Below, piece by piece: positions 11,077 through 57,161 of a stretch of DNA of 64,000 nucleotides. The position numbers and the translations under genes were made by a program. Source of the stretch: Octopus vulgaris (taxonomy: Eukaryota); NCBI GenBank assembly GCA_951406725.2, contig OX597823.1, forward strand, positions 107,694,001-107,758,000, read 5' to 3'. How positions within the stretch are numbered: the stretch's first letter is position 1; each line of letters opens with the position of its first letter. The notes under the pieces were generated by a model that saw only the letters and a list, made by a program, of their open reading frames with translations, did no database searches and was not told the origin of the DNA.

Positions 11077-11080
<4 letters not shown>

Positions 11081-11332
11081 TAAGCAATTAAGGGTTTAGC
11101 AACGAATTGCCTTACCGACACGAATTTAGAAATAGCAGTCAAAGAGATTATAGCTATTTCTTCTACTAAAAGGTAGAAGAAATAACTATAATCTCTTTGA
11201 CTGCTATTTCTAAATTCGGTGTGCGGTAAGGCAATTCGTTGCTAAACCCTTAATTGCTTAGTATTACTTAAATTTTCCTCGAATGAGGCTTTTACATGCC
11301 GAAGACTACTTGGTGTAATTGATAATTATTCC

Positions 11333-11337
<5 letters not shown>
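11077..11337 (+). mobile_element. Fold-back insert A in (TA)n (PLE-like inverted pseudo-LTR)
   Basis: Arms 11077-11166 and 11173-11264 are near-perfect reverse complements with a 6-nt loop. Unpaired tail 11265-11337; (TA)n on both sides. Confidence 0.75.
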
Positions 11338-11376
<39 letters not shown>

Positions 11377-11682
11377 TATACATACATATGTATATACACA
11401 TATAATGTGTGTGTGTGTATATCCTTGTTTTGACATTATATGATGTCTTGTGATGATTGTAAATGAGCATTGATATCATACTAGTGATGGTGTTTGTTTC
11501 CAATCCACTCTAAAAGGACACTGTCTGGCCATGGGGAAATATCCTGCTTAGAAACAAGTAAGGCTGGTGACAGGAAGAATATCAACCTGTAGAAATCTGC
11601 TTCAACAAATTCCAAGTGATCCATGCTAACCTGGAAAAGCAGATGTTAAGAAATGATGGTGTGGCAGTGATGGTGCTAGTAC

Positions 11683-11716
<34 letters not shown>

Positions 11717-11769
11717 AGTGTTGGTATTGATGATGTTTTGTTCAAGCTCAGATTTATGAGTTACTTGAT

Positions 11770-12100
11770 ATCTTTTACTTGTTTCAGTCTTAAACTGTAG
11801 CCATGCTGAGGTACCAGCTTGAAGAATTTTTAGTTGAACAAATCAACCCCAGCACATTTCTTTTTAAGCTTAGTACTTATTTTATCAGTCACTTTTGCTG
11901 AGATAAGCACTCAAACACCGATTGTCAAGCAGTAGTGGAGGGGGACAAACACACACACACACACACATTTATATGATTGGCTTCTTTCAGTTTTTGTCTA
12001 CTAAATCCACTCACAAGGCTTTTTTCATCCTAAGTTGCCATGCTGTGGGACTGAACCCAGAACCTGTGTTTGGGAAGCAAACTTCTTACCATACAGCCTC
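11770..12100 (-). mobile_element. tRNA-derived SINE, diverged copy
   Basis: tcttttacttgtttcagtc...ccatgctg...gggggacaaac(ac)n...ttctttcagttt...gggactgaacccag, antisense to the 54645 family. Confidence 0.75.
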
Positions 12101-12259
12101 TATTATCAGAGGCTCATATAGTTTAGGGGTGGGGAAGAATTGTGAATGTATGACTTTCATGCTTACCCGGTGCTTATTAGTAATTTAAGTGAACTTCAGG
12201 GGTTTGAGATCCAGCTATATTAGCTGGATCTTCAAATAATAATAATAATATTACTTCTT

Positions 12260-12735
12260 TTTACTATTGGCACAAGGCCTGAAATTTTAGGGGAGGGGGC
12301 TAATCAATTACACTGACATTCCCACCCCATCCCCGTACTTGCGTGACAGGTACTTATGTTATCAAACCCCAAAAAATGAAATAGTTTCAAACTTTGGCAC
12401 ATGGCCTACAATTGCAAGTGGAAAGGTAAGATGATAACATTGACCCCCAGTGCTTAACTGGTACTTTATTTTATCAACCCTAAAAGGAGGAAAGATAAAG
12501 TTAACCATGGCAAAGTTTTCATGTAGAACATAAAAGAACCAAAACAAATGCTTCAAAGCATTTTTTTTCCAATGCTGTGATTATTTTTCAAGAGCACTAA
12601 ATATTTCTAATTTCGGTATGAAGCTAGCAATTTTGGAAGGTGTTAGTTGGTTGCTTCAACCCCAGCACCTGACTGGTACTTTACTTTATCATTCCAGAAA
12701 GGGTGAAAGGCAAAGTTGAACTTGATGGAATTTGC
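12260..12735 (-). mobile_element. Cluster of three Meta-domain SINE 3' fragments
   Basis: Repeated ggcacaaggcc...ccccag...actggtactt...aaagg...aaagtt modules at about 12265, 12390 and 12610. Confidence 0.6.
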
Positions 12736-12778
<43 letters not shown>

Positions 12779-14876
12779 GTAGAATGAGGATATAGAAAAC
12801 TGCATTACTTAGCAGTGTAAGGAGTCTCCACAAAGGCCTTGAGATTTTAACAGAGTGTATCACAAGAAGTGAACAGCTACCATATTAATCATACTTCCAA
12901 CAGCAAACTGTATATGTTAGATGTTATAAGAATAATAATGATTTCAATAGTAAAAATAATTTCAACAAATATATATGTTTGTATTTTAGACACAAAGCCA
13001 GTAAATTTGAGTGTAAAGGGTTAGTTGATATCAATGATGATAATGTAACAACATGAAATAACAGGTTCAAATCTTATGTTAGTTATTATTGTATAACCTT
13101 GACAAGATTGATAACACTTCTTGCCTACATATGCCTGACTGACAGTTGCTGACTTCATTGGTTAATGGTAGAAATGGTATCCGACTTATAAAAAAGTTAA
13201 ACCAATTTAAACCATCTTTTACATGTTAAGACAGAAATGATGGTGATGATGATAATGAAGATTGTAATGATGGTAATTGTGGTGATAGAAGGCATTGTAT
13301 CTAGAGAGAATGATGGATTTGTCTTTAATTCATCTTAACATCAGAGTTAAAATAGTCAGCCCTGTGGATCGACTGGGGTTTGTAACAGGATTAATTATTT
13401 AATTCATCCAACTGAAAGAAGTGATTGTTCATTAAGGATTGCTATATTTCAACAACTAGCTCCCTGACCACCCAACTCCTTATAATCATCCACTTTAGCA
13501 ACTTATCTCTCTCTTCATCTCATTTCAACCTCCTTCTGAAATTGTTCTCTGGTTAACTTTGTAAATTAGAAACTAAAAGAAATATCATAATGCTGAATAA
13601 AAGAGAGCGAGAAAGAGAGAACTGATCTAGTCATGGCAATGATGCTGTGTTGAGGATGTAGTGGTGGTGGTGGTGGTGGTGGAAGTAGTGTAAAAGTAAT
13701 CGCCTTGTATGTAATTCAGGATAATTTGTTGTATATTTTTCCAAACTAACACTTGGTCTGTCTTCTCATAAAAAGATATTTACATTATATGTGATTTTAT
13801 GTGTGGATGTAGATGAAAGGTTTAGTGTAGTGCATGTATGGTGTATGTTTGTTTGTTTCTTATTGATGTTGTGTCTTAAACTGCCAGAGTTTTATATCCA
13901 TTTAGATAATGGGGAATGTGTCTATAGTACTCAAGATTTCATCGAATTACAATCAACTTGCTCTTGGGCAAGTTTCTTCTCCTTTATCTTTAGAAATTTA
14001 CAAAAAGCTTCTTGTTATATTTTGCTTTATTATTATTATTATTTTTTTTTGACACACACACACACACAAAATGTATATGTATTTTTTCTGCCACTTCAGT
14101 TTCTTCTCACCCACACCTGCTCCATACTTTCGTGTTTAATCAACTTACTATTTTTTTATGTGTATTGGGGAAAAATATATAATACTTGATATGAATTGAA
14201 TTACATGCTCACATGTAGTGATATAAACTTATAAATGGTGAGTAAAATATCATACACATATATATATATGCATGTACACATTTGAATGCACATGCATGTG
14301 TAATATGTGCATATGAAATGCTTATGTGGGATTGTGGGGCAAGAAAATGGGGTGGGGCGTAAAAGTAATAATTTTTGACATACCCTCCACTCAACATTCT
14401 ACCCTCATTACTTATTTTGTTTTGTTTTTCTTAGATAAAATCATTTCTAAATTTCTTGTTTTCAGGGTAAAGGGAAATGTATATATATAACTGCAAAGTT
14501 TCTCTTCCCCCACCTTTCTCTTATAGATTAGATTGTAAATATCATATCAATTAGAAAATAGATATTATTTTTGACATTTTCCTTATAACTCACATATGGG
14601 CTGTGTGTGTACATGTGTGTGTATGTGCATGTGTGTGTAAATGTCTCATTGCGTTTTTCTTAGTGCATATCTCTGTTTAGTCTATCTGTACACATTGTTT
14701 TCAGAATTGCGTGGTTTTCTACCCTAGGTTTATAATTTAGTATTTTTATCAATCTGTTTTTCTTTATGTTTCAAAACTTATAATAATAATAATGAAATGA
14801 TTGTATACAGTGCTCAGGTCTTTGAATATACAAAAGTGGAAGGTGAATTTATATTTAATATAATAGCAGTCAGTAT

Positions 14877-15267
14877 GGATGGATGGAAGCACTCTATCGG
14901 TTACGATGATGAGGGTTCCGGTTGATCCGAATCAACGGAACAGCCTGCTCGTGAAATTAATGTATAAGTGGCTAAGCACTCTACAGACACGTGCACCCTT
15001 AACGTAGTTCTCAGGGATATTCAGCATGACACAGAGAGTGACAAGGCTGGCCTCTTGAAATACAGGTACAACAGAAACAGGAAGTAAGAGTGAGAGAAAG
15101 TTGTGGTGAAAGAGTACAGCAGGGATCACCACCATCCCCTGCCGGAGCCTCGTGGAGCTTTTAGGTGTTTTCGCTCAATAAACACTCACAACGCTCGGTC
15201 TGGGAATCGAAACCGTGATCCTACGACCACGAGTCCGCTGCCCTAACCACTGGGCCATTGCGCCTCC
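14877..15267 (-). mobile_element. Young tRNA-derived SINE with 13-bp TSD
   Basis: Minus-strand head ggaggcgcaatggcccagtggttagggcagcggactcgtgg...ggtttcgattcc (A and B boxes) and (ATCC)n tail. TSD tagcagtcagtat at 14864-14876 and 15268-15280. Confidence 0.9.
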
Positions 15268-16617
15268 TAGCAGTCAGTATATGGCTGGTACTGCAACAGA
15301 AGTGAGTCACATCATCAATTGGTTATTTAGTGTAACATTTATCGACTATACATTGTCAGAAAGTTATACCAACAGAAAATTTAGTGATGAAGTGTCTGTC
15401 TCTCCAAGCAACACTTATCAGAAGGTTTGAATGAAGTACAAGAAGGCAGTACAAGATTCCTCAGCTAACCAGTGTAGGTAATGTTATTTGTTTTGAGGAG
15501 CTGCTATTTGATCGCTCAACTTACTAGAAAGAGTAGAGAGATCTATCTTACAACCACACTCGACTGCCTTCAGTAAGGAAAAGACATATTAAATAATACA
15601 GTCAAACATGTCACTAAAATGATCAGGTAATCACAGCTCGAACACTTTAGAATCAAACCAAAGCTGACCTTGGAAAAAAAGAACAGCAGAAATAACTATG
15701 TACTCATAGTATTTGTTGTGAGGTAGACCAGACCATTTGAAAGTTAAATATTTTGGCCCTAAAGAAACTTTTAAGCCATTTTAACAACAGGACCACATCC
15801 TTTATCTGACCTAGCCAACTGTGACTATTGTTCTTTTCTTAAATATGAACAGTAAATTCAACACTGACACAGTTTGGCCTTAAATAAGTTACCCAACCAA
15901 GTACTTGAATAGTGCATGTTTTTTTAGATTATTTACCTTATTACTGATACACTTTTCCAATCATCTTTTCAGACTCTATTTCTACACATTTGAAGTACAA
16001 TCCAAATTTTAACATTCAGCTCACCCTAACATCCACAAAGTATTGAATGCAAGACCATTTCAGAAATCCTCAGTATTCAGTCAATTATTTGTGACATATG
16101 ACTGCTCTAGTAAAAATGACCAGAGTTATTAAACATCAACAGCTTTAAGAAAAAAACCTTTCAGTTTCTATTGTATTTTTGTTTCCAATACAGACTGAAA
16201 AACTGAGTTTCTAGCAATAGACTTCCAACAAGAAAGTAACAACGTAGAATGAAGAATCTTGGAAAATAAAATAACTGGTACAATTTTTTTTTTTATATAT
16301 ATAGATTTATTTTAAATCAACATTACCAAAATCTTTTATTTGTTTTGTGCTAGTGTTGTGACTACTTACCAAATGGATCTACCCATGTGTGTGTGTGTGT
16401 GTGTGTGTGCATGCATTTATATATATAATAAACTTTAGATAGATCAACCTTTTTACATTGTATACTGAAGAAGATAGGTTCCCACCAAGCTATCAAGTAC
16501 AGTCCTTAGTCATGTTTGTTTTATAACCAGACATGGCAGAAATAGCATGAATTTCAAAGCTAAGTAAACAATGTGTATGAGTGTAAGTATGTTTGTTTGC
16601 TCTTCAACTTAATATTA

Positions 16618-16657
<40 letters not shown>

Positions 16658-19600
16658 ATATGTATGTATGTGTGTGTGTGAGTGTGGGTACATTATTTGA
16701 AATAAGCTGGTTGATTAATTCTTTAACTACCAATGGGTGCTTAAATTTATTTTTCCATCCTTGATAGTTTGATCAAGTGAATTATGTTTGATTAGGATTT
16801 ATCAACTAAGTATTGAACAAAATATCATATTTATTATTTTTATTACTTTTATTTGTACTAAATTGTTGGAGACAATAGCATGGCTGACCAAAATATCCTC
16901 CTGATATTTAATAACTCTATGTTCTCAGTTCAAATCCTAGCAATATAGAATTCTTTTTTAATCACTTTAGCCTTAATAAAGTCAGGACCAGTAAATTCAA
17001 CAAAACTTGATCTGCTGCTTTGTCAGATGTCATTATTTATTATCATTTTAGTTATGGATTTCTGTAACATTTAAAGAAAACTGTTTTCCAGTTTCACCTT
17101 CAAAAATAGGTCAGATTAGAGATTTTAGAAACAGCTGTGACAAATTGAAAAATTTACTTTTTGAAATATTAGATACTAATTAACTTTTAAGACCTGATGT
17201 TAATTTATTTTATATATTTTTTTAAGGGTGAGTAACCAATTTGATGGTGGTGGTGTGGGCTTGACATCAGGGTAATGTTATGAAAGAATGTGTGACGCTG
17301 GTAGTTATAGATGGAGATGCTAAGAAACTGGGGTGAGGGAAAATAAAAATGATGGAAAGCATCAGATACATTGTATACGTAACTTTGTATTGATTCTTAG
17401 TTGTAACTATTTTGCACATGAACCTCTTGGAAGGAACAAATGCCCTAATTGTCTTCTCTGTCTTTCTTTTTCATAATATGGCCTATGACCACTTAATTAC
17501 CTGCTCAACTAATTCATATTTATCATATTGTTATCTGGTAGTCTGACTGAATATTTTTTTTTATGGAATAAAATTATCATTTTAGTTTTAAAAAATAAAC
17601 CCTCCATTCTTAATTTTTTTAAAAATGGTGTTAATTATTTACCAGTGAAACTGACAAGTTGAAGATTTTAAATGAATTATTATTTTTTTTTATGAGCGAG
17701 TGATATGTGAGATACTTTACTTCATTATTGTGGCACTGGTTTTAAAGCCAAAATAGTTTATATTCTATGTTCTTTCACTGAAACTATGTTGCCATGTATC
17801 TTTAGCAAAATGGCCTATTTTTAATTAGATAACATGGATGAATGCACTGCAACAGGCAAGAAACCATTTCCTGTGTATAAATAATGAAATTTCATCTTGA
17901 AGATAGATATACCATAGTCCTATGGAGTATTAATTCCATGAGGTTAAAGAAACTGGATCACTCGAATGCTAGTTGATTTTTAAACTACCATCTCAGACAA
18001 GTTAGTTGAAAATCGATGATACCATTACTTCTGTTTCATAAAAAATTACTTATTCCAACAATTTCAAAATGGAAATTGAATTATCATTTAGCCCATGTCT
18101 TTTATGTTGTAAGTGAAATAAATTAGCTATAAGACAAGTGAAAACCCCCGTCTCAGGTTGATGGCTTCTCTAAATAGTTATAGTTGTTATACAAATTATT
18201 TCTAATCTTAACTGTGATGTGGCCTTTAATTAACAATCTTCATTTTGCTGGCTTTAGTCTTCCTAATCCAAAAATATATGCTAACCATCGCTTGTTCTAA
18301 AATTGTCAAACATAATCTTATTTCAACTATTTGAGAAAGTAGCAATTGATAACAATGCCTATAAACATATCAAAAAGTTCAATAGAAACAAAACATATGC
18401 TGTTAGACTGATCTATAAAATATTATGAAGCTTAATGATGTTAGTGATAAGTTGAAGTTTATTACAAAAATCTACTTGGCAAGTAATTAAATCATTTTAC
18501 AGTTGTAAGCACACAAGTGACACACATCTCTTCTTAAGATATTTTATTGTTTTATCAGAAAATATTAGTGATTATATCCCTACACACCATTTTTTCTTTG
18601 TAAATTAAGGATTAATGATAGTTACTATGTCTCATGCTTTTGTAAGACAAAGGTACAGAGCAGTGTATAATACCTGTAGATGTAGAGTGATGAAATAAAA
18701 TATTACTTATTACCTGTAGAGGTTTTCCTGCAGACTTGCTCTTGGAATGAACAGTATCCATAGAGTTGATAAAATCTGGGTCCTTATGTAAGTTTCATTC
18801 CTAGGATTGTTGCCTTTGACAGGATAATAGGAAAAGAAGGGATCTTTGTATTTTTTTGTTTTAGTTTATATTTCTTTTTAACATTGTTTTTATATCTTAT
18901 TTCTTTTTGTTATCCATTTTCACTTTCTTTCTTCCTGACTTTTATTTATAAGTTTCTATTGTTTACACACCTGGAAATAAAAGACAAAGAGTTATTATTG
19001 TGGTTATTTAGATTTGATGTTGTTGTTGTTGCTGGTATTTTTCCTAAATTGACTAGAGATTGGTTTTATGTTAATTAATTATATTATAATTTTGGCTGAA
19101 ACTCAAATGAGCTATACACATTACACAAGCTTAAATAAAGATAGTAATGCAAACACATAAAGAATGATACACATTTACACACAGTGGCACATACATGATA
19201 ATGATACATCAGACACTTGTACACATATATGTACACATATACATTAAATGACATACATGCAAGTAGGGAAACACACATACATACAAAAGCGTGTATTGAA
19301 TGAGACAAATGTGTGTATTTAATGGCATACACATTCAGAATCACACATACACATACATCTATACACTGATGCACAAGTATATGAATAAAATCAGACTCAG
19401 ACATACGTATATACAATGATAAACATACATACATACGTACATTGACACATACACATTAAATGAGACATTATAATATATATTCTACTGCTTCACTTCCAAC
19501 GTTAACTGTAACTGTCCTGGTATAAACCTGCCATTTTGTCAACTCTCTAAACTTGCCTCCTTGTAAAAGAGTAATTGTAATTTTTATAATTATTGTAAGC

Positions 19601-20599
19601 AAGAATCTATAATGAGGGGCACTTAATGGGAGAGGATGGAATGGAGCTGTGAATGTGATTAGTTTCTATGATGGTTGATATTAAGTTCCATGGAGTAGAG
19701 GAAGTGTTTCTGGCAAGCTGTGTGTAATAATATGCTTTAGATTTCTCGTTACTTTGCTTTATATAGGTAGAAGCTCTGTACTGTCTCAGTCAACCCGTGA
19801 ATGCAAAGTAGTGTATTCTACCTAACTAATCAATGAAGAACTGGGGAGGTCAGTGTAGGGTAGATTTCTGAAATGTATACCCACCTTAAAGGGTATCTTG
19901 TTACATTTCATGGTAACGGTTTAAAGATAAGGCTCTGATAGTACGAAACAAAAGATTCACAAATAGAATATCCATGAAACAGAAGGTTCCCTTTTTGGAT
20001 TTTGCCAACAATGTCAGATCTCAAAGGATATGATTCGTGACCTCAATAGAGGAGTTTATGTAAGTGATCCTTGAAGAAGTGTCAGCTATTGATAGGATAT
20101 AAAGTATTTCCCTTATGTTTATTTTCATCATTGTTGTTTGTGATGTGATTTACTGATTGTTTCTCTTGTTTTTCTTTTCTAGTGATAACCAAACTGATTG
20201 TCTCATTAGCTTAATTATCAACCTGTACTTTTCTTTCTTAGAAACTAGAAATAACGAATGATCCAGTCATTCTGGAATAGCAGATATCTCTAAGAAATGC
20301 AAACCAGTAGAAATAAATGACAAACTGAAGATGACTTGAGGATATGGAATAACTAGCTAACACAAAGATAGAGAACAAATAGAAATGGTAACTTTTAGTC
20401 TAGTTGGTAACCTGGAAATACAAGACTAAGGGATAGGCAACCAAAATATGCATCTGTCACGTAATACCTTGCATTTGTGTTACTCCTGGTGTATTTATTT
20501 TGAGACAAATCAACCCGTTTCAAGCTGTTTGCAAGAAATGGTTAATCTGTTTTAATTATGAATCATGAATCAATAGTGCATTATAATGTGATAGAAGCC

Positions 20600-26037: not shown

Positions 26038-26038
<1 letters not shown>

Positions 26039-29286: not shown

Positions 29287-29720
29287 CAAGTTTGTTTGCC
29301 AACATAACATAGCAGTCCTGGTTTAGGATGAATGTTGCTGTAATGTAGCCCCAGGAGAGCTCCTGGAGCTAAATTACAGCAACATTCGTCCTAAACCATG
29401 ACTGTTATGTTATGTTGGCAAACAATCTTTACTCTAGAGTACTGTTGCTGAATATCTCTCATTGAGAGATTTACAAATAGTAATTTTCCAATATATATAT
29501 ATATATAGATGTTATTATTATTCAATCCAAGGAAAAAACAATTTCACTCAGAGGGATGGAACCCCCCCCCCACACACACACACACATATACGATGGGCTT
29601 CTTTCAGTTTCTGTCAACCAAATCCTCATAAGGCTTTGGTCAGTTTGAGATTATAGTAGAAGACATTTGCACAAGGTTCCATGCAGTGGGACTGAACCCA
29701 GAGCCATAAGGTTGTGATGG
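28998..29720 (-). mobile_element. tRNA-derived SINE split by fold-back insert B
   Basis: Tail half 28998-29220 and head half 29585-29720, with the insert inside the internal (CA)n(TA)n tract. Confidence 0.75.
29287..29490 (+). mobile_element. Fold-back insert B in (TA)n (PLE-like)
   Basis: Arms 29292-29357 and 29360-29425 are reverse complements with a 2-nt loop. Tail 29426-29490; (TA)n flanks. Confidence 0.75.
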
Positions 29721-38782: not shown

Positions 38783-39700
38783 ATGGACGTGAGAAAACCT
38801 TTTGACTAGGCCCCTGCTCTCTTATCAAGCGGTCGATGCAGAAGCTAGGAATAAATTAGTGGTTGGTGTGAGCTATACAAGCCATGTACAGAGATACAGT
38901 CAGTAAGGTGGCAGTCAGCTATGAGTATAACAATGAATTTAGTGTTCCAGTAGGTGTTCACCAAGGATCAGTCCTCCATCCACTCTTGTTTATTATAGAC
39001 CACCAGGCTATAACAAAGGAATTTAAGACTGACTGTCTGACCTTCGTAGCTCCTCTATGCTGATGACTTTGTCTTTATAGCTGAATCACTATCAGTAATA
39101 GAGAAGAAATTTCAGGTGTTGAAGTAAAGTCTAAAACAAAGGGCCTTAGAATTAATTTAGCAAAGACCATAGTCCTAGTAATTAGGAAAACAGACTAAGT
39201 ACTAATCCCTTCAGGTGTAGGAAGAAGTTCCATACTGTATGCCAAATGCAGCAAACTATGGACAGATAAGAAGTGCAGTGATATCACAGAAAGGTTAAGA
39301 GAGAAAGTAGTCTTTGTGTATGGCAAATGTGCAGGTACAATAAGCACTAATAATGTACATAAAATAGATTTCTGCAAACGTTCAGGGGGTCTTCAGAAGT
39401 AGTTGATAACTTCCGCTACATAGGTAACCAAATTGACAGTGGAGGAGGATGCTCTGAAAGCATAGTTACTAGAATAAGAATGGGCTGGGCAAAGTTCAAA
39501 AAGCTTCCACCTAAGTGCCTCTCCCTCAAAGTGAAGGTCAGATAGTATGAAGCTTGTGTATGAACATCTATGTTAGAGGCCGTGGAACATGGACTGTGAC
39601 TACAAAGGACATGCAAAGGCTAGAAAGAAATGAAGCCAGTGTGCTGTGTATGAATAACAGAGTGTAAATGATTTAAGAGAAAAATTGGGTATGAGAGCCA
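38783..39700 (+). pseudogene. RTE-clade LINE reverse transcriptase relic
   Basis: Translates to AIQAMYRDTVSKV...FSVPVGVHQGSVLHPLLFII...LLYADD (39056-39067)...RIRMGWAKFKKLPP, with stops and frameshifts. Confidence 0.9.
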
Positions 39701-41047: not shown

Positions 41048-41086
<39 letters not shown>

Positions 41087-41088
<2 letters not shown>

Positions 41089-41324
41089 CTAAAAATAAGG
41101 GTGTCTGAGAGACACCACCATGCCAAAATAGACTTTGTTCCTCTGTCTTATCTCATGGTGCGATATGAACATTTAAGGTGGTTTTTAGAGTCAGGGATTT
41201 GACTGCCATTTCGGCATGGTGGTGTCTCTCAGACACCCTTATTTTTAATTGTAAAAAATTATTACCTTTGTATGGTAATTTATTCCCATGCTGGCCACTT
41301 GATAATATCGATATTATCCTTATT

Positions 41325-41330
<6 letters not shown>
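41087..41330 (+). mobile_element. Fold-back insert C in (TA)n (PLE-like)
   Basis: Arms 41087-41129 and 41208-41250 with a 78-nt spacer. Tail 41251-41330 contains the palindrome gataatatcgatattatc. (TA)n flanks. Confidence 0.75.
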
Positions 41331-42823: not shown

Positions 42824-42859
<36 letters not shown>

Positions 42860-45080: not shown

Positions 45081-45267
45081 GGACAACAGACACAAATTGA
45101 AGAGAAGCTATACACCTAATTGATATTAGTATCAACCTCAATGGGAAATGTATTCAAGCGTAAGTTCTTCGATACTCCATGAGATTCTACTTTAGAACTT
45201 TGTTAGGGTACACAATTTCCGTATTTCTGGGGTAACATGGATGATCATCAAGAACTGACAGTCAGTT

Positions 45268-45755
45268 CTTGAAAGAAAAACTGGGCATAAGAGGCATCAG
45301 ATGCGGTGTGCAAGAGAGACAACTGTACTGGTATGGACATGTGATGCATATGGATGAGGACAGCTGCATAAAGTGGTGTCATTCTCTAACTGTGGAAGTG
45401 GAGGACCCAGGAAGACATGGGATGAGGTGGTGAAGCATGATCTTCAAATGTTGGGTTTCACAGAGGCGATGACAAGTGATCAAGTCCTTCGGCAATTTGT
45501 TGTGCTTGAGAAGATTCATCAAATCAAGAGAAATCCTTTTGGTGGCCTGTGCCAGTGACACATAAATGTACCCATACTGGTGGCAAGGCACCCACTATAC
45601 TCTTGGAGTGGTTAGTGTTAGGAAAGGCATCCAGCCATAGAAACCAAGCCAGAATCAGTCTGGAAACTGCCACAGCTGTCTGGCACACCAGTTGCTGTCA
45701 AACCATCTAACCCATGCCAGCATGGAAAGCGGATGCTAAATGATGATGATGATGA
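45268..45755 (+). mobile_element. RTE LINE 3' end (ORF C-terminus + 3'UTR)
   Basis: LKEKLGIRGIRCGVQERQLYWYGHVMHMDEDSCIK...GPRKTWDEVVKHDLQMLGFTEAMTSD, followed directly by the shared tail and (GAT)n. Confidence 0.9.
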
Positions 45756-46310: not shown

Positions 46311-46319
46311 TATACATCT

Positions 46320-46520: not shown

Positions 46521-47459
46521 TGATGAAGAATCTTGTGTGCTTCTACCAAGGCAGCTGTTACATATGTAGTGTCCAGAGAAGCAATACATTCAAGTTATGG
46601 TGACTGACAGAGGGTATTCATCTAGTTGTAATGTCTCTGGACAAGATGGGATGGGTGGGTTTCAAACAGGAGACAATGGGCAGAGCAGACTCATTGATGT
46701 GATTTGAAACAGGCTAGAATTAGTGAGAGGAACAATATATATATATAAGTTACTTTTATATTTATATTATCTATCAGTCTTTCTCTCTCACTCTCACTTT
46801 CTCTCTATATGTGTGTGTGTGTGTTTATAGTTATGTATATATATGCATATATCGATAGATATTTAATTATATATATATATGTTAAAAATGTATACTTGTC
46901 ATACATACATACATATATATATATATATACATGTATAATGGCCGTTTGTATTTATATATATTTGAACATATATATAGATATATGTCTTTAAATATTTTGA
47001 AAAATATATATGAGTTTTAAAATATATATGTGTGTATGGATATATACTCGCACACATGCACACACTGACATATACATACATAAATGTGTGTGTGCGCACA
47101 CATTTGTCTACATATGTATATATATCTACATATATGCCTAAATGTACACACATTTATGTGCACACACCTATAGTTAAACAGTTATATAGATAACTGCAGA
47201 GAAATGTAGGTAGAAGGGTAGGTACGTGGGTAGGTAAATGAATAAATATAGGGTGTCTTTAATTTCCACTTTTGAAATAATACTGTCTTAATAAAAGTAA
47301 GTTAACAAAATGGTTTTCAAATGTTTTCTCTTCTTCCATTCATGTTGTATAACCTAATTTTAAACTTCGAAAATTTATAGGCAATATATGTATACCATTG
47401 TATATTTGTATATGAGATATACATATGTATATTTATGTATGCCTTTATACATACATATG

Positions 47460-47505
<46 letters not shown>

Positions 47506-47838
47506 TTTATGTTTACAGCATTTCATTTATGCATACATACATACATATATATTTATAAATGTATATATGTATGTAGTTGTTTATGTATATGTATATATGT
47601 ATGTATTATAATTTCAGCAGTGTAGAAAAATATATCGGTGCAGTAACCATATATTAAAACAGTTCTCTCTTTTACATCAAAACTCTCCACTATAATTATT
47701 TACAATATCAATGAAATCGCTTTTACAAAATAAGTGAAGAATTAATGAATAGTGAAATCTATTATTAATATTATTATTGTTGTTGTTATGATTATTATTA
47801 TCATTGTTGTTATTGTCATTGTTATTATTATTTTCTAG

Positions 47839-47908
47839 GTGTTCTTGTTTGAGCTGTAGTAGTAGTAGGGAGATGAGAACTGATTCCATCAAATGTTCTG
47901 TCATGTAA
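47839..47908 (+). CDS. Candidate terminal coding exon ending in a CaaX prenylation motif
   Basis: Acceptor ttttctag|G at 47838/47839; phase-2 frame CSCLSCSSSREMRTDSIKCSVM*; T-rich downstream and AATAAA near 48177. No upstream exon identified. Confidence 0.3.
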
Positions 47909-48205
47909 AACATATGGTACACATTCAGTCTGTTACTTACTGGTGAGAAATTTCATCCTTTATTGCTTAGGCTGTTCTTTGTTATTTTTGGTTTTTTTTC
48001 CCTATATTTCTTTTACCTTTTTATTGCTTTCTATGTTTTTTTTCTTTTTTCAAAACTTTTTGTTTTATAACTTCATTTTATTTGTTTCTTTCTTTTTAAA
48101 GACAAGTTGGTCTTGCTAAAAGGATTCAAGTTAAGTGCTTTGAAGAGGATGGAACAACAAAAACAGCAACATTAAAAATAAAAAAAAAACTACTACAATA
48201 TTCAT

Positions 48206-48263
48206 AATGATGATGATGATAATGATGATGCTGATAATAATAATGATGATGATGATGATGATG

Positions 48264-48314
<51 letters not shown>

Positions 48315-48350
48315 GAAATAATAATAACATAGATGATGGTAGTGATGATG
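48206..48350. repeat. (GAT)n/(AAT)n compound microsatellite
   Basis: Visible directly. Confidence 0.95.
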
Positions 48351-48470
48351 ATATAAACATACACATCCACGTTTCATGCACCCAAATACAAATACACATA
48401 AATATACTCAAAATTATTATAACACATAAGTATACACTGTGTGAGGATTCTCTACAGAAAAACACCCACA

Positions 48471-48539
<69 letters not shown>

Positions 48540-48851
48540 ACATTCAAAAACACACGGCACACACTGAAGTGGTGAATTTCAATATATGTACACAAGTATC
48601 TGTGCATATACATGCATTAAGAAGCACATGCATAATTCACATATAGATTCAAATACTCACACAGAAAGAAATATAAACCTACATAAATATTCAAATACAT
48701 GTATGTATATGCATAGAAACATGTTTACATGTGAACATAGAAAAGTGAGATTTCATATGCATTCAAACTTATTCAGTTACAAGATGTATGGCATACATAT
48801 GCACACACATGTGTGCATTTATATATATATATATATCAATACATAGATATA

Positions 48852-48893
<42 letters not shown>

Positions 48894-48976
48894 TATGTGT
48901 GTGCCTATATATATATAGAAGTATATAAATATATATGTAAATAAATGTATGAATATGTATATGTAAATATATCTTT

Positions 48977-49007
<31 letters not shown>

Positions 49008-49051
49008 ACATATTTACATGTACATATATACTCATATATAAACATATATTT

Positions 49052-49132
<81 letters not shown>

Positions 49133-49359
49133 TATGTATATTGAGATAGATAGATAGACAGATATAAAAATATATATGTGTATATGTGTGTATGCATTTA
49201 TGTCAGTGCAAATGTATATATTTAAATATATATATAAAGATATACACTTAATCATATATATATATATATATATATGTATCTATCTATCTATCTATACATA
49301 CATACATGCATTTTTTTTCTAGTTTCAGCTCAGAGCTGCGGCCATGCTGATGCACCATC

Positions 49360-49405
<46 letters not shown>

Positions 49406-50639
49406 TATGTATGTATGTGTGTATGTATGTATGTGTATATATATATATAAGTTTAGAGATATATGTATAAATATATTGATATATATGTATACATATATCA
49501 AGTGATTGACATATATATATATATAACACATATGTGTTTTGCTTCTAAAAGAATGCATTTTATTCACTGCAGCAAGTATGTCCATATGTAGCAGATAGTA
49601 TAGAGAATAGCTTTAACCATGTTCTGACATCAAAATGAATGATAAATAAATACAACATAAAACATTTGCAAAATTCCTTTTCAGGAATTCTATTCTTGGC
49701 TGCAATTTTATTCTGTAAATTCTACACACCAGAAGAAAATAAAGGGCAATTTGCATTATATAGAATGTGCTGTATATCTATGTGATTGTGTGTATTTGTG
49801 CATGTGTTTCTATATATAAATGCACATGCACACACACACACACACGCACACGCATATGTATATAAACATTCACATATAGAAATGTGCGAACCCAGAAACA
49901 CAAGTGTGTATGTATGTGTATATGCAAACACTTCATCATCATCACCAGCATTTCAACCTCCAATTTTTAACTGCTTGCATTGGGTCAGACAAGCTTCATT
50001 GAGGGAGATTTTTTACGGCTGATTTCCAATTGCCAACCCACACCCGAGGAAGGGAATCTTTTCCTAATCTTGAGGTTCCTGCTCAAGACTGCAAATAAAC
50101 ATCATTCCTTTTATGATCACTTCTCTTATGGTGGTAAAATTAGCTTTATGATTAGCATGCAATATCAAGACAGGTATAGAAAAACACGCACACATATTAT
50201 ATATATATATCTTTCACCTTTAATTTTTTTTCTTTTACCTGTTTCAGTTCTTAGAACTGTTTGGGTTAGATCCTGAAAGGTCTTGTCAAACAAATCAACC
50301 CTAGTACTTATTTGTTGAAGTGTGAAACTTATTCTGTCAGTCACTTTTTACTGCACCTCTGGGTTACAGGGACATAAACAAACCAATACTATGGGGGTTG
50401 GGGGAGCAGAGAGAAATACAAAAACAAAGACACACACACATTTATATATATATATATACATCTGGCTCTTTTCCGTTTCTGTATACCAGATCCACTCACT
50501 TGCCCAAGGTGCCATGCAGTGGGACTCGACACAGCACCATGGGGTTGGGAAGCAAACTTCTCACTAAACAGACATGTTTGTGCATATATAAATAAGATTT
50601 ATATTTATGTGTGTGTGTGTGTGTGTGTGCATGCATGTA

Positions 50640-51092
50640 TATCATCATCGTTTAACGTCTGTTTCCCGCGCTAGCATGGGTTGGACGGTTCAACCGGGGT
50701 CTGGGAAGCCAGGAGACTGCACCAGGCTCCAGTCTGATCTGGCAGTGTTTCTACAGCTGGATGCCCTTCCTAACACCAACCACTCTGCAAGTGTAGTGGG
50801 TGCTTTTTACATGCCACCGGCACAGGTGCCAGAGGGGTTTAGCAGCGGCCACGATCAGTTTATGCTTTTAACGTGCCACCGGCACGGAAGCCAGTCAAGG
50901 CGGCGCTGGCATCGGCCACTTTCGGATGGTGCTTTTTATGTGCCACTGACACAGAAGCCAGTCGAGGCGGTGCTGGCATCAGCCACGTTCGGACAGTGCT
51001 TTTTATGTACCACTGGCACAGGTATCACAACTACTATTTCCATTGATAATAGTAGTTGTGATACCTGTGCCGGTGGCGCATAAAAAGCACCA
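50640..51092 (-). mobile_element. RTE 3'UTR-type repeat with 5' inversion
   Basis: Antisense copy 50640-51045; 51048-51090 is the reverse complement of 50996-51038. Confidence 0.85.
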
Positions 51093-51093
51093 T

Positions 51094-51133
<40 letters not shown>

Positions 51134-51264
51134 CTTATTTTATTCTACCTGTTTCAGCTATATGGCTGCAATCATATTGGAGCACCACTGTGAAAAAGCT
51201 TTTTGTCCAGTGTGCTGACCAGTGTACCAGCTAGCCCATTAGTATATATAGATACCTTCTTCTA

Positions 51265-51478
51265 TTCACTTACTTGATTTGGTCCTATGACTGTGGTCAT
51301 GCTGGAGCACTACCTTAAAGGACTTATTCTTTGCAAGCCTAGTACTTATTCTATTGATGTCTTTTGCAGAACTGCTAAGTTATGGGGGCATAAATTCATC
51401 AACATCAGTTGTCAAGTAATGGTGGCAATACAAACACAGACACACACACATAACAATACATACATATACATATATATA

Positions 51479-51519
<41 letters not shown>

Positions 51520-51660
51520 GACAGGCTTCTTTCAGTTTCAGTCTACCAAATGCACTCACAGGGCTTTGGTCAGTGGGATTGAACCTGGAACAATGTGGTT
51601 GGGAAGCCAGAACCATGTGGTTAGGAAGCAAGCTTCTTGCCACATGGCCATGCCTGTTAT
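51265..51660 (-). mobile_element. tRNA-derived SINE, diverged
   Basis: Antisense to the 54645 family, with an internal TA tract. Confidence 0.75.
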
Positions 51661-51889
51661 ATATATATAACTGAGGAGGGACACACAGACAAGCTCGATG
51701 AATGAGAAAGATATATCTTTAAAGAGAGAAACTTCAACAGAGTACAAATGGCATAATAACGATGTAAGACATAATGTGAGAAAGAGAGATTCAACCTTAC
51801 TAATTCACCTTTCACTTATTTTCTCTCTTTACATTATATAATTACTCTTACATTTATCATCAAGCCAGATCTCTCTCTGTATAAAGCTG

Positions 51890-52050
51890 TTGATGATTTC
51901 TTTTGTCCTTTGAACTTTTCCCTTTCTCCTTTCGGATGAAGAGCTATGCTCAAAACCTCAAAAAGTCTCTCCTTTTACTGAGCATCAGAATAATACGTTC
52001 CTTGTGCATGTCCTCTTCGTGTCTGTTATTGCTAATTTTATAATTCATTT
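51890..52050 (+). mobile_element. Decayed hammerhead-bearing pseudo-LTR-like repeat
   Basis: ctttcggatgaagagctatgctcaaaacctcaaaaag (51929-51965) keeps the gagc/gctc stem II; the cores are mutated. Confidence 0.55.
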
Positions 52051-52413
52051 ATTTGATACGACAATATATGTGTGTGTGTGTGTGTGTGAGTGGAGACACT
52101 ATATATGAATAGAGCCCTTTACTCTTGCTTTGTTGAGGATATGGCATGATGAAATGCACCCAAAACTTTTCGTAAGGAGGTTGGTGTTAGGAAGGGCATC
52201 TAGCTATATACAATATACATACAGGCAAGATATACTTACACTTTACTACATCTTGGAAGTTAGTAATGATGAATAAGATCTGACTAGGATTATACCAACC
52301 TATCCAGCCAGTGGTAGCACTTAACCCTCCCTCCGAAATTTCGGTCTTGTGCCTATAGTAGAAGGAATTGTTGTTGTTATTGTTGTTGTTATTATTATTG
52401 TTATTGTTGTTGC

Positions 52414-52474
<61 letters not shown>

Positions 52475-52794
52475 TTTATCATCATTATCATCGTTATCAT
52501 CATCATGGCAATAAAGCCTATGTTACTGTCTTTCTGACACACATTTGAATAATTTAAATATAATATTTAAGTAAAACAGTTTATATTGTATTCAGATAAA
52601 ACTTTTTATATTGTACTCAAATAAAATCTGTCACTTTTGATAGATACTATGCTAGTATATCTATTTATATACAGAAACATTCATAATTTATTATCTCTAA
52701 AGGCAAGAATTAGAACACATTTAACTATATCTTTTCCTTTGTGTAAATATGTGTATATATGTAAAGTGTGTGTGGGTGTGGATATTGTACATAT

Positions 52795-52833
<39 letters not shown>

Positions 52834-53003
52834 GGTTGGGCACATAACTAGGTGTATGCAATCTCCAGAAAGAATTTTCATATTCTTCTGAATTTTCCTA
52901 AAAGATATGCTGTAATTTTCTTCCATTGTCCTCAAAATGTAAATTCTTTTAAATTATCATCCAAAGTTATTTCCTTTCAATCACCATTGAAAAAGTTGAT
53001 ATG

Positions 53004-53140
53004 TATATATATATTCTATATATATATATTCTATATATATATATTCTATATATATATATTCTATATATATATATTCTATATATATATATTCTATATATAT
53101 ATATTCTATATATATATATTCTATATATATATATTCTATA
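53004..53140. repeat. 15-bp minisatellite (ATATTCTATATATAT)n, about 9 copies
   Basis: Perfect periodicity, reflected in the IFYIY repeat ORF. Confidence 0.95.
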
Positions 53141-53208
53141 TGCCAATTTTTGCATGGTTTTGTTTATGAAGACTTACTTTTAATTGTTTCTGTTATATGA
53201 TAGCATGT

Positions 53209-53243
<35 letters not shown>

Positions 53244-53340
53244 CACGCGCACATGTGTATTTGCGTGTTTATGAACGTAGATTCATTATATAGAAATTAT
53301 ATGGTAAATATGCTACTGCCATAACACATACACATATATG

Positions 53341-53389
<49 letters not shown>

Positions 53390-53437
53390 TATTTTTTACT
53401 TATATTTTTAGCGATGCAGGTACTCATGTAGTACCCT

Positions 53438-53473
<36 letters not shown>

Positions 53474-53576
53474 CACATGTCTTATATATAGGTATAGTTT
53501 ATTAATTTGCCTGTACCGCTGGTATTCATTTGCCACTAGTGATAGTATTTTGATAATACAATCACTCTCATATTTA

Positions 53577-53618
<42 letters not shown>

Positions 53619-53664
53619 GATAGATAGATATAAGCCACCATGCTGCTGCTGCTGATGATGATGA

Positions 53665-53711
<47 letters not shown>

Positions 53712-54163
53712 CATGCATATATATCATTATTCAATGTCGCTTTTACATGCTGGCATGGGTTGGATTGTTTGATAGGAGCTGGTAAAGAGTCGGTAGATGC
53801 ACCAGGCTCTATTGTCTGTTTTGGCATGGTTTCTACAAATGGATGCTGCCTTTCCTAATGCCAGCCACTTTAGAGAGTGTACAGGGTGCTTATAATGTGG
53901 CACCAGCACTAGTGCTTTTTACATGGCACCAGCACTGACAGGGTCACCAAGTAACTTGCAAAACAAAAGCATTGTTTTATAGAGAGAGACAAGTTGAGAG
54001 AGAATAAAAGAAAGATACAGGAAGAATGAAGAAAAAAAGTGGAAGTCCATGGGAGAACATTGAAATTGGCAATCAGTGGTAGGGGAGGGTAGAGGGGTTA
54101 AAAAGTACATGGTCGATGGATGCCAAAGACATGACACACATGTGTCAATATATATCTACTCTT

Positions 54164-54549
54164 TACTGTTTTACTTGTTTCAGTCTTTTGACCGCGGCCA
54201 TGCTGGAGCACCGCCTTTAATCGAGCAACTCGACCCCGGGACTTATTCTTTTGTAAGCCCAGTACTTATTCTATCGGTCTCTTTTTGCCGAACCGCTAAG
54301 TAACGGGGACATAAACACACCAGCATCGGTTGTCAAGCGATGCTAGGGGGACAAACACAGACACACAAACACATGCACACACACATATATATATACATAT
54401 ATACGAAAGGCTGCTTTCAGTTTTCGTCTACCAAATCCACTCACAAGGCTTTGGTCGGCCCGAGGCTATAGTAGAAGACACTTACCCAAGGTGCCACGCA
54501 GTGGGATTGAACCCAGAACCATGTGGTTGGTAAACAAGCTACTTACCAC
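54164..54549 (-). mobile_element. Young tRNA-derived SINE
   Basis: High-identity reverse complement of 54660-55046. Confidence 0.9.
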
Positions 54550-54558
54550 TTATGTGTA

Positions 54559-54644
<86 letters not shown>

Positions 54645-54646
<2 letters not shown>

Positions 54647-55046
54647 CGCAGGAGTGGCTGTGTGGTAAGTAGCTTGCTAACCAACCACATGGTTCTGGGT
54701 TCAGTCCCACTGCGTGGCACCTTGGGCAAGTGTCTTCTGATATAGCCCCGGGCCGACCAATGCCTTGTGAGTGGATTTGGTAGACGGAAACTGAAAGAAG
54801 CCAGTCGTATATATGTATATATATGTGTATATATATGTGTATGTATGTATGTATTGTTTGTCCCCCTAGCATTGCTTGACAAACGATGCTGGTGTGTTTA
54901 CGTCCCCGTCACTTAGCGGTTTGGCAATAGAGACCGATAGAATAAGTACTGGGCTTACAAAGAATAAGTCCCGGGGTCGATTTGCTCGACTAAAGGCAGT
55001 GCTCCAGCATGGCCGCAGCCAAATGACTGAAACAAATAAAAGAGTA
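54645..55046 (+). mobile_element. Young full-length tRNA-derived SINE (CORE-like body, internal microsatellite)
   Basis: ggcgcaggagtggctgtgtggtaag (A box)...gggttcagtccc (B box), ccttgggcaagtg CORE-like motif, internal (TA/TG)n and 3' gactgaaacaaataaaagagta. Confidence 0.9.
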
Positions 55047-55960
55047 TATATATAAAACCTGGTATAGAACTTCATGTTTGAGACTCTGATGAAGCTGTAA
55101 GGTGTTACCCAAACACTCAACTATGCGTCCACTGGATCTTATAGTGGAAACAGCTACTGAAGTTCATACTGAAGTCGATAAGAGTCTATGAATGTGTGTG
55201 CATGTATTTCTGCCTTTCCATTTAATAATGGGTTCAGATTTTGGCACAAGGTCACCATGTTCAGAGGAAAGGGCAAGTTGATCACATCAACCTTGGTGTT
55301 CAACTGGTCCTTACTTTATCGATGTCAGCCTTGGCAGAATTTGATCTCAGAACATAAACTGATGTAAATGTTGGCTGGTTGACTGATTTCTTCTGTCACA
55401 CTTTATGATATACAGAGGGAGGGAAAACGAGTAAAAAAGATAGTGAGAGAGATAGACAGGGAGATGTAGGATGAGTGAATGTACTTGGCTTTGTGGCAGG
55501 CAATAAGTGAAGTAACACTATACACACACATACACACACACATGCACAGTGAAAGAGAAAGAATTAATGAGACAGGGGAGGAGGTGGACAATGACAATGA
55601 GGAATTAAAATGACAGAGATGCTGGCTGTAGCAGAAAAAGACTCAGCAATAATTTATACATTATGCTTTTCAAGTAAGCTGTTCATTATCAGAGGAAATT
55701 TTTTGATTAAATCATTAGAATGTTAGGTAACTTAAGAATTTAAAGCAAGCTCTTCCGAAGGAAGGAATATATCACTACAACTTCTACAATGAATTCAAAA
55801 CACATTTGCTTCCATGGTTTATCTCAGGAAATATGGCATAAATGTTAAAAATTAAAATTCAACTTTTATCAAATTACATCTGGTGGCAATAGTATACTTC
55901 CAGAGATATCTGTCATATGATGGGCAACACTTTAGCATGCGTGTGTACATATACACATGC

Positions 55961-56186
55961 AAGGGAGTGAACAAGTGAAAGAAAGTAGCACTCAACACAT
56001 TTGGTAGGAGTATTATTTAATAACAATTTTACTTGGCTCCATGCAACTTAAAGCTTCGTAAGCTCATAGAAAGAAACCTGGTGTCAGGCATCTGAAGATG
56101 AAGTTCAAATGCCTGAGAAGCTGAGTTCATTCTATGAGCCTAGGAAACTTTAAGTTGCATGGAGCTAAGTCAAACTATTATTAAAT
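55961..56186 (-). mobile_element. Fold-back insert D (PLE-like), tail on the left
   Basis: Arms 56015-56071 and 56130-56186, inner hairpin tcaggcat/atgcctga, tail 55961-56014. Flanked by TG/TA-rich and (CA)n tracts. Confidence 0.7.
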
Positions 56187-56255
56187 CACACACACACACA
56201 CACACACATTATATACATACATACATATATATATTTATATATATATATATATATA

Positions 56256-56518
56256 CTTTATTTTAAGCAGCAGAAAATTCAACAAAATCTGTTACTCTGA
56301 GTTTCTTTGCCGTTCTGAGTTTCTCGTTGCAGTTCATCAGACAGTTTCTCGTTGCCGTTCATCATCAGCTAGCAAAAACTGTCTGATGAACGGCAACGAG
56401 AAACTCAGAGTAACAGATTTTGTTGAATTTTCTGCTGCTTAAAATAAAGCATATTACTCTACCACTGGTATTTGAGTACTCTTTTTTCCACCTTGTTTCA
56501 CATTTATGTGTTTACTCC

Positions 56519-56520
<2 letters not shown>
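56256..56520 (+). mobile_element. Fold-back insert E (PLE-like) carrying a hammerhead ribozyme
   Basis: Arms 56256-56347 and 56376-56449, tail 56450-56520, (TA)n flanks. Confidence 0.8.
56373..56422 (+). ncRNA. Minimal type I hammerhead ribozyme
   Basis: Stem I caaaaactgt/acagattttg, CUGAUGA (56383-56389), stem II cg-GCAA-cg, GAAA, palindromic stem III actc-a-gagt, predicted GUA cleavage after 56412. Confidence 0.7.
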
Positions 56521-56554
<34 letters not shown>

Positions 56555-56769
56555 ACCCATGCCAGCATGGAAGACATCTGTTTAATGATGATGATGATAA
56601 TGATGACGTATATACAAATATATATGTATGCATATATAAATATATATATATGAAATATACAAATATATGTGGTGGTGTCTGTATGTGTATGTGTATATGC
56701 AATATACATATACATATATATTCATATATATACATACATATATATATATATATATATACGTTTATATAT

Positions 56770-57157
56770 TTGTTGTGCAAGATTTTTGATGTGAAGTCGA
56801 GTGCTGAAACAGATATTGTTGTATTTCGGAATGGTCATTTTGCCAGTTTAGCCAATAAAAGCACAGGCACTAATATATTTGGTGTTACTCTGCTTCAGTG
56901 CTATTTATTTTTTACATTAATCTTAATCTTATTTCGGCCAGAGTTCTTTCGTCACACTCCTGTGACCGCATCAAATAAGAAAGAAGAAAGCAAAGGACCT
57001 CTGATGCGGTCACAGGAGTGTGACAAAAAAACTCTGGCCGAAATAAGATTAAGATTAATGTAAAAAATAAATAACACTGAAGCAAAGTAACACCAAATAT
57101 ATAGTGCGTGTGCTTTTATTGGCTAAACTGGCAAAATGACCATTCCGAAATACAATA

Positions 57158-57161
<4 letters not shown>
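56770..57161 (-). mobile_element. Fold-back insert F (PLE-like) with ~160-bp arms
   Basis: Arms 56813-56973 and 57002-57161, 28-nt purine-rich spacer, tail 56770-56812, TA-rich flanks. Confidence 0.8.

Follow-up and report, generated by a model that had tools for sequence, protein, structure and literature searches.

Fold-back inserts with one-sided tails in Octopus vulgaris are almost certainly truncated Penelope-like elements whose two arms pair two fixed end points

This analysis concerns six fold-back inserts in a stretch of 64,000 nucleotides from Octopus vulgaris (assembly GCA_951406725.2, contig OX597823.1, positions 107,694,001 to 107,758,000), called the window below. Each consists of an inverted arm, a direct arm and an unpaired tail on one side. 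They are almost certainly 5'-truncated, two-armed copies of six families of Penelope-like elements (PLEs), here named F1 to F6 after inserts 1 to 6. When the copies were made, both target strands probably served as primers, with two different start sites. That both arms were copied from one and the same RNA molecule is an evenly balanced proposition. The architecture as such is already published for PLEs, and the six families are further examples of it; what is added are the statistics of end pairing and an intact family of the Hydra clade.

Each family has two fixed end points, P1 and P2, which are 54-103 nt apart. Measured from the cut site of the hammerhead ribozyme, the ends of insertions cluster at approximately +193 and +296 in F1, +172 and +226 in F2, +151 and +231 in F3, +37 and +108 in F5, and +123 and +180 in F6. 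The stretch between them is the tail, with a length of 103, 54, 80, 71 and 57 nt, respectively. Tail ends are fixed, and the arms vary from tens of nucleotides to kilobases.

The pairing of the two points was measured on pattern searches listed by position, because top matches are biased toward tails. For F5, most of the first 100 matches listed were resolved by hand count into 63 insertions. Forty of these are two-armed with both ends seen, 17 are single-armed (14 at P1, 3 at P2), and 6 are unclassed. Among the two-armed copies, 34 combine P1 with P2, none P2 with P2 and one P1 with P1, and five have one end at neither site. Independent choice would yield at most half mixed pairs, compared with 34 of 35 here (p = 1e-9). 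The short form of F5 is mixed in 14 of 15 cases, and the remaining copy is eroded. Nineteen F1 insertions comprise 7 mixed, none with the same start, 1 other and 11 single-armed (9 at P1, 2 at P2), so all 7 classifiable pairs are mixed. Of 28 F2 insertions, 24 are two-armed. A map made by script gave 15 of 20 mixed (p = 0.02), and rereading of six unclear loci gave 17 mixed, 3 same-start and 4 unclassed, that is 17 of 20 classifiable pairs. P1 and P2 ends pair either way round, and the single-armed copies of F5 and F1 end cleanly at P1 in 23 of 28 cases.

The arms of one insertion also share sequence variants. In F5, arm mismatch is 0.7% within and 3.2% between insertions (29 insertions; 0 of 2000 permutations), and minor alleles are common to both arms in 84% of cases within insertions versus 16% between them. 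The corresponding mismatches within and between insertions are 0.6 and 1.6% for F1 (15 of 5000 permutations), 6.9 and 7.9% for F2 (14 of 5000), 4.2 and 5.9% for F3 (0 of 5000), and 2.1 and 4.0% for F6 (0 of 5000); arms of F1 to F3 were compared by direct arm-to-arm BLAST.

The inner ends of the arms are related as well. In 26 simple F5 insertions they correlate with a Spearman coefficient of 0.81, and in 7 of the 26 they lie within 10 nt of each other (0 of 20,000 permutations). The P1 arm is the longer one in 6 of these insertions and the P2 arm in 13, and the arms are offset by more than 1 kb in several F5 copies. In raw counts, junctions mostly have an overlap of 0-6 nt or a short filler. 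One F5 junction, located at a palindrome of 4 nt that lies 44 nt upstream of the cut site, recurs 144 times and is found in both parent haplotypes. The same junction (window position about 56369) lies on sequence resembling a 3' splice site.

The pairing of P1 with P2, the shared variants and the correlated inner ends fit priming from both strands, most simply on one RNA. In such a model, a two-subunit complex of reverse transcriptase (RT) and endonuclease would nick both strands of an AT-rich target, with a stagger of about 10-16 bp as judged from the target duplications of F2. On the same transcript, cDNA synthesis would be primed at P1 by one strand and at P2 by the other. Both cDNAs, which have the same sense, would stop early. 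Their inner ends would then be joined via a few nucleotides of inverted microhomology or a short palindrome, followed by fill-in. The arm begun at P2 would carry the additional P1-P2 stretch, which becomes the tail. Families F1 to F3, which are retrozymes, would borrow the PLE machinery in trans.

These steps agree with the in vitro behaviour of a PLE from the anole (PMC11167929). This element is predicted to form a dimer, it cuts and extends both strands, and the two internal sites at which it starts delimit the tail. A wider proposal is that PLEs integrate by obligate twin priming, in which a single complex would copy the same RNA twice, beginning at two offset positions, onto both strands. 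This generalization is tentative, and confidence in it falls slightly short of even.

Another possibility is that both strands are primed on two RNAs, or on two units of a multimeric RNA, from one source locus. The arms would again have the same haplotype, PLE transcripts are partial tandems, and F1 to F3 are tandem units. Taken alone, however, this explanation accounts neither for the correlated inner ends nor for the 144-fold junction in both haplotypes, and it is rather unlikely. It is more improbable still that one cDNA or antisense RNA folds back and copies itself, with the tail resulting from staggered resolution by the endonuclease. Self-priming of this kind has been proposed for rotifer PLEs (PMC3846280). 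It predicts identical arms and a one-ended tail, and palindromes do occur at the inversion junction. But fold-back of a P2-primed cDNA cannot give a longer P1 arm, which is seen in the 6 F5 insertions mentioned above and in insert 6 of the window. Arm offsets above 1 kb also speak against it, as do the clean P1 ends of single-armed copies, which therefore mark P1 as a start site in its own right. Finally, 144 palindromic junctions with zero loop would presumably be hard to form in a single strand.

Two further explanations deny that the inserts are retroelement copies of this kind, and both have a very low probability. The inserts could be miniature inverted-repeat transposable elements (MITEs) of the Tc1/mariner type, with terminal inverted repeats at TA. 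The short F5 form, a 229-bp unit fixed in 144 copies with exactly the same junction and flanked by TA, resembles such an element. Against this, arms range from tens of nucleotides to kilobases and one of them carries a tail, and F2 has duplications of 10-16 bp. Fixed symmetric terminal repeats with a TA duplication were not found, and the continuity of F5 and F6 with RT and GIY-YIG frames refutes the MITE reading. Descent of the short F5 form from a single master MITE is likewise not supported, given that both parent haplotypes occur symmetrically; the form thus arose more than once. Palindromic junctions are also a known artefact of long-read data, which favours the view that the inserts are fold-back errors of assembly. 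Arms that differ by 0.6-7%, outer ends that are fixed and family-specific, and target duplications that flank the whole two-armed unit all contradict this view.

Several observations weigh against priming of both strands on one PLE transcript. The end classes rest on hand counts of BLAST block maps. Pairing has exceptions, namely the three same-start F2 copies of 20, one P2+P2 copy among 15 inverted top matches of F6, and the single P1+P1 copy of F5, which is a 10-nt stub. The arms of the short F5 form are no closer within copies (1.5%) than between them (1.4%; 1260 of 2000 permutations), with few variable sites. Shared arm variants could also come from gene conversion within a hairpin or from two RNAs of one locus. 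Finally, no contiguous PLE frame was found for F1 to F4 in the 30 top-match loci of each (1.5 kb of flank), nor in 60 position-ordered loci of F1 and F2 with the same flank. A search for autonomous partners of F1 to F4 in 30 GIY-YIG loci and 12 longer regions found only separate neighbouring insertions. Three of the 28 F2 insertions (L352, L369, L378) lie within 1.5 kb of unrelated Neptune-type relics.

The families were established by searching each direct arm and tail against the 2.8-Gb genome assembly, with 40 candidates scored and 30 loci fetched per family. First-look candidates numbered 1530 for F1, 2126 for F2, 2650 for F3, 492 for F4, 480 for F5 and 1763 for F6. Top matches have identities of 99%, 92-95%, 94-97%, 73-89%, 100% and 94-96%, in the same order. 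Exact matches in the genome number 123 for a 29-mer of F1, 644 for a 30-mer of F2 and 1681 for a 25-mer of F5. All six inserts belong to separate multi-copy families of this genome.

Families F1, F2 and F3 are made up of units repeated head to tail, 586/587, 352 and 484 nt long, to which no open reading frame (ORF) is linked. The F1 tandem contains four hammerheads spaced 586-587 nt apart, and the tandems of F2 and F3 were seen as partial dimers only. An ORF-less tandem of a few hundred nucleotides with a type I hammerhead per unit is what defines a retrozyme. Family F4 is old.

An autonomous parent element can be found for F5. Its top matches are a fixed 229-bp hairpin in 28 of 29 cases, and one variant copy revealed upstream sequence. 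The 25-mer taken from this sequence gave the 1681 exact matches, in a tandem unit of 3352 nt. The unit holds an open frame of 727 amino acids (aa) with the motifs RWK, DKT, CxCX5C, CxxC and CxH, which include all those of the Hydra clade, and with a C-terminal endonuclease lacking CCHH. Two copies of the ORF are 99.1% identical. The protein has no Pfam match, but it matches a hidden Markov model (HMM) of the F6 type at E = 2e-8 and a Neptune-type ORF at E = 1e-7, and its Atlas look-alikes carry HTH_animal/GIY-YIG. To judge from these motifs, insert 5 represents the 3' end of a Hydra-clade PLE that is both young and intact.

Read upstream, family F6 continues into a frame of 672 aa that combines RT motifs with a GIY-YIG domain and a CX4CXXC linker. 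In one copy, an inverted pseudo-long terminal repeat (pLTR) brackets the element. The F6 protein has RVT_1 and GIY-YIG Pfam matches, both under the Pfam cut-off, and the best protein match of the ORF linked to insert 6 is a predicted Octopus vulgaris protein with 93% identity. The linker is of the CX2-5CxxC form, and insert 6 is assigned to the 3' end of a PLE of either Neptune or Nematis type. A parent element with PLE-type RT and GIY-YIG was found for F5 and F6 only. Direct and inverted pLTRs with a one-ended tail, the mark of endonuclease-containing (EN+) PLEs, are present.

A preliminary description of the window had taken the inserts for ends of PLE-type, hammerhead-bearing retroelements and not MITEs, and the frames of F5 and F6 bear this out. 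It had also called the families non-autonomous, but inserts 5 and 6 are ends of autonomous PLEs. The upstream extension that it suggested reached RT and GIY-YIG ORFs for F5 and F6 and not for F1 to F4.

Other PLE families were seen nearby or in the same loci. A link of F5 to a Neptune-type ORF of 781 aa, based on proximity at one locus, was rejected, since this ORF comes with a pLTR of its own and F5 is inserted in the (TA)n behind it. A young Neptune-type family occupies loci L225-L233 (for instance L228:1768-5468). It has many open frames of 781 aa, which an upstream frame of up to 479 aa overlaps, and its ends lie at two fixed points adjoining (TA)n. A second Neptune-type family, with an open 775-aa frame containing RT and GIY-YIG, lies at L185:2920-5244 on the minus strand. 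A further fold-back family, related to F1 and with its own hammerhead, is nested at L181:4560-5130 in the (TA)n tract of an F6 3' region.

The window itself is AT-rich and microsatellite-rich, with 34% GC and 161 rows of tandem repeats (Tandem Repeats Finder). The components of the inserts are as follows.

11077..11173, minus strand: insert 1 (F1, 586/587-nt tandem retrozyme), inverted arm with its outer end at P1, about +194 from the hammerhead cut
11173..11337, plus strand: insert 1, direct arm and tail (tail from about 11265), starting downstream of the ribozyme and without hammerhead
29288..29358, minus strand: insert 2 (F2, 352-nt tandem retrozyme, not TA-targeted), inverted arm from P1
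29360..29491, plus strand: insert 2, direct arm and tail (29430-29491), ending at P2, without hammerhead
41084..41131, minus strand: insert 3 (F3, 484-nt tandem retrozyme), short inverted arm from P1
41134..41330, plus strand: insert 3, direct part with sense spacer, arm (41208-41253) and tail (41254-41330), ending at P2, without hammerhead
55957..56103, minus strand: insert 4 (old family F4), direct arm, with a decayed core of the hammerhead, and tail (55957-56014)
56104..56186, plus strand: insert 4, inverted arm, from self-BLAST and family copies
56256..56364, minus strand: insert 5 (F5, putative Hydra-clade PLE), inverted arm that starts from P1 (+37) and includes short re-copied segments
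56369..56521, plus strand: insert 5, direct arm and tail (56450-56521), ending at P2 (+108)
56374..56421, plus strand: predicted minimal type I hammerhead in insert 5, core from 56383, by motif and helix pairing
56758..56973, minus strand: insert 6 (F6, putative 3' end of a Neptune/Nematis-type PLE), direct arm, cut off within the hammerhead core, and tail (56758-56812)
56974..57161, plus strand: insert 6, inverted arm from P1, with mutated GAAA box of the hammerhead

Self-BLAST of the window recovers inverted arms at all six places, with E values of 5e-74, 1e-49, 4e-12, 2e-35, 9e-46 and 3e-127 for inserts 1 to 6. Each insert has an unpaired one-sided tail of about 55-80 nt, which is on the left side in inserts 4 and 6, where the element lies on the minus strand. 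The direct arm and tail of insert 1 stop at +270 and thereby miss the usual P2 by about 26 nt. In insert 5 they are 99% identical to the pLTR of the intact 3.35-kb F5 element. On the template, the inverted arm of insert 6 goes about 30 nt further upstream than its direct counterpart, forming an antisense spacer. No BLASTN match was found among the six inserts. The preliminary description of six tailed fold-backs with largely different sequences is therefore sound. It had placed all of them in microsatellites. Tandem Repeats Finder gives (TA)n or (CA)n on both sides of inserts 1, 3, 5 and 6, but on the left only for insert 2 and on the right only for insert 4. Beyond the right end of insert 2, the raw sequence shows a shorter (TA)n, but the tail end of insert 4 adjoins only a decayed stretch of alternating TG/TA.

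The PLE RT relics that had been reported in the window were not recovered there, either by tblastn with Hydra-, Neptune- and other PLE-type proteins of this genome or by an HMM of 60 relatives of the F6 protein. The RT relics present are broken pieces of an RTE long interspersed element at 39396-39693 and 45248-45522, which are possibly what was earlier taken for PLE relics.

Further structures occur in the window. A seventh fold-back with a tail, at 5775-6123 beside decayed (TA)n, comes from an older relative of F6 (81% over 62 nt). A second, older copy of F4 forms an inverted pair at 60754-60976. Two others are not PLE-related as far as tested: a long inverted pair of repeats resembling short interspersed elements (SINEs) around a (TATC)n/(TA)n core at 54164-55046, and a 95-nt palindrome within a SINE-like tandem at 50996-51090.

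A type I hammerhead motif is present in all six families, with helix I predicted to pair across the cut site. In F1, F3 and F5, helix III is self-complementary and appears suited to dimer folding, as described for the minimal hammerheads of PLEs (PMC4209133). Hammerheads were sought with family-specific patterns; a strict regular expression misses F2 to F5, which have an unpaired base before helix II. Of 30 loci each, the intact pattern was found in 21 for F1, 7 for F2, 9 for F3, 2 for F4, 30 for F5 and 20 for F6. The F4 hammerhead is decayed. In F6, core position 9 is C in place of A in 40 of 42 copies (loci L151-L180) and helix III is very short, and this hammerhead may be inactive or a variant. 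Within the window, only the predicted ribozyme of insert 5 has an intact core; inserts 1 to 3 are truncated downstream of the hammerhead, and those of inserts 4 and 6 are damaged. The inserts had been proposed to carry ribozymes; the families have the hammerhead motif, and one of the six copies has it intact. An Rfam scan of the window gave no hammerhead among the 150 matches listed of 224, and these were only microRNA-like and below their gathering scores.

Targets were examined at the 3' end of copies, leaving out window copies and duplicates. A (TA)5 or longer run adjoins this end in 26 of 27 copies of F1, 21 of 29 of F3, 28 of 29 of F5 and 18 of 29 of F6, against a background of 0.7-2.1% (a random non-TA position gave 396 of 18,765 draws, or 2.1%). 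Several F6 copies that are not at (TA)n adjoin (TAA)n instead. Four of the six families clearly target (TA)n. In F4, the end motif was found in 24 loci, and in 16 of these it is followed by a run of alternating purines and pyrimidines, against a background of 12%; this family probably targeted (TA)n formerly.

By contrast, F2 was found at (TA)n in none of 28 top-match copies and none of 28 position-ordered insertions, and is not microsatellite-targeted. It has target duplications of 10-16 bp; duplications of at least 10 bp, here 10-15 bp long, occur in 15 of 18 inverted copies, whereas copies with a direct arm only have them in 1 of 10 cases and shuffled pairs of flanks in 13 of 300. The position of insert 2 in (TA)n is due to chance or to a selection effect in the initial reading. 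The (TA)n targeting proposed for these families stands for F1, F3, F5 and F6 and probably for F4, and the fixed tail end with variable arm adjoins (TA)n in F1, F3, F5 and F6 and not in F2. The (TA)n appears to be older than the insertion, because the unprimed 5' ends of single-armed copies also adjoin TA, and because the TA tract of one nested insertion is plain in another copy of the element. The same (TA)n tract hosts different PLE families at loci L026, L075, L133, L198 and L224, and three families share window positions 55957-57161.

As annotation, these findings are ordinary: PLEs of the octopus, (TA)n-biased Hydra and Naiad elements in Octopus and retrozymes of molluscs are already in print. 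A 2026 repeat annotation of O. vulgaris counts 31 recently active Penelope-like families (PMC13282606). In practice, short hairpins of this sort call for annotation as PLE ends in place of MITEs or microRNA hairpins. Craig et al. 2021 (PMC8557442) list the origin of tandem and inverted PLE structures and the microsatellite bias as open problems, and the paired-end statistics reduce the range of models. An intact F5 with about 1700 young pLTR matches makes these models testable. If the twin-priming reading is true, the footprint of the retrozymes is direct genomic evidence of writing by PLE enzymes, and the young octopus Hydra element is a ready in vitro system, also for (TA)n targeting.

The architecture is not the new system that had been suggested. 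Craig et al. 2021 describe the inverted 5' copy, the often one-ended tail and the (TA)n bias, and draw the structure in their Fig. 2. The complex insertions of EN+ PLEs (PMC8557442; PMC3846280) are alike in the inverted arm on the 5' side, the one-ended tail, the partial tandems, the type I hammerhead in the pLTR, and the (TA)n bias or target duplication of 8-16 bp. The octopus tails are longer, with 54-103 nt compared with the 30-40 nt described. The other difference is that end-point pairing and arm haplotypes are quantified in the octopus families. No published account of paired start-site use or template sharing in PLE inversions was found in a search that covered neither the 2005 and 2006 PLE reviews nor the supplements of the bioRxiv preprint on retrozymes cited below. 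A biochemical parallel is PAc, the Poseidon PLE of Anolis (Frangieh et al. 2024, PMC11167929), with its two internal RT starts bounding the tail and its cutting and extension of both strands. That study saw no strand difference in start site, and its available text reports no paired use or template sharing.

Among known clades, F5 shares with Hydra the motifs RWK, DKT, CxCX5C and CxxC/CxH, a C-terminal endonuclease, the hammerhead and insertion at (TA)n, and its RT resembles the Hydra rows in the supplement of Craig et al. 2021, as compared by eye. That paper lists Hydra and Naiad families from Octopus, including Hydra-1_Obim of Octopus bimaculoides. Family F5 is separate from Hydra-1_Obim, with another hammerhead and a 3.35-kb unit with clear pLTRs, and is young and abundant. 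Family F6 shares with Neptune/Nematis-type PLEs the C-terminal GIY-YIG, the CX4CXXC linker, residues of CCHH type and targets that are mostly (TA)n or (TAA)n, and differs in its C9 hammerhead.

Molluscs are already known to carry retrozymes (Cervera and de la Pena 2020, PMC7229834). A preprint makes the case that retrozymes are PLEs of a non-autonomous kind (Li, Clavereau, Pollet 2026, bioRxiv 10.64898/2026.07.22.740005), a link that rests there on co-occurrence and pLTR similarity. Families F1 to F3 resemble the non-LTR retrozymes of metazoans in being ORF-less tandems (587, 352 and 484 nt) with a type I hammerhead and low GC, and in having long target duplications where these are visible. 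What sets them apart from known retrozymes is that their insertions bear the PLE signature itself, with two end points, an inverted arm and a tail.

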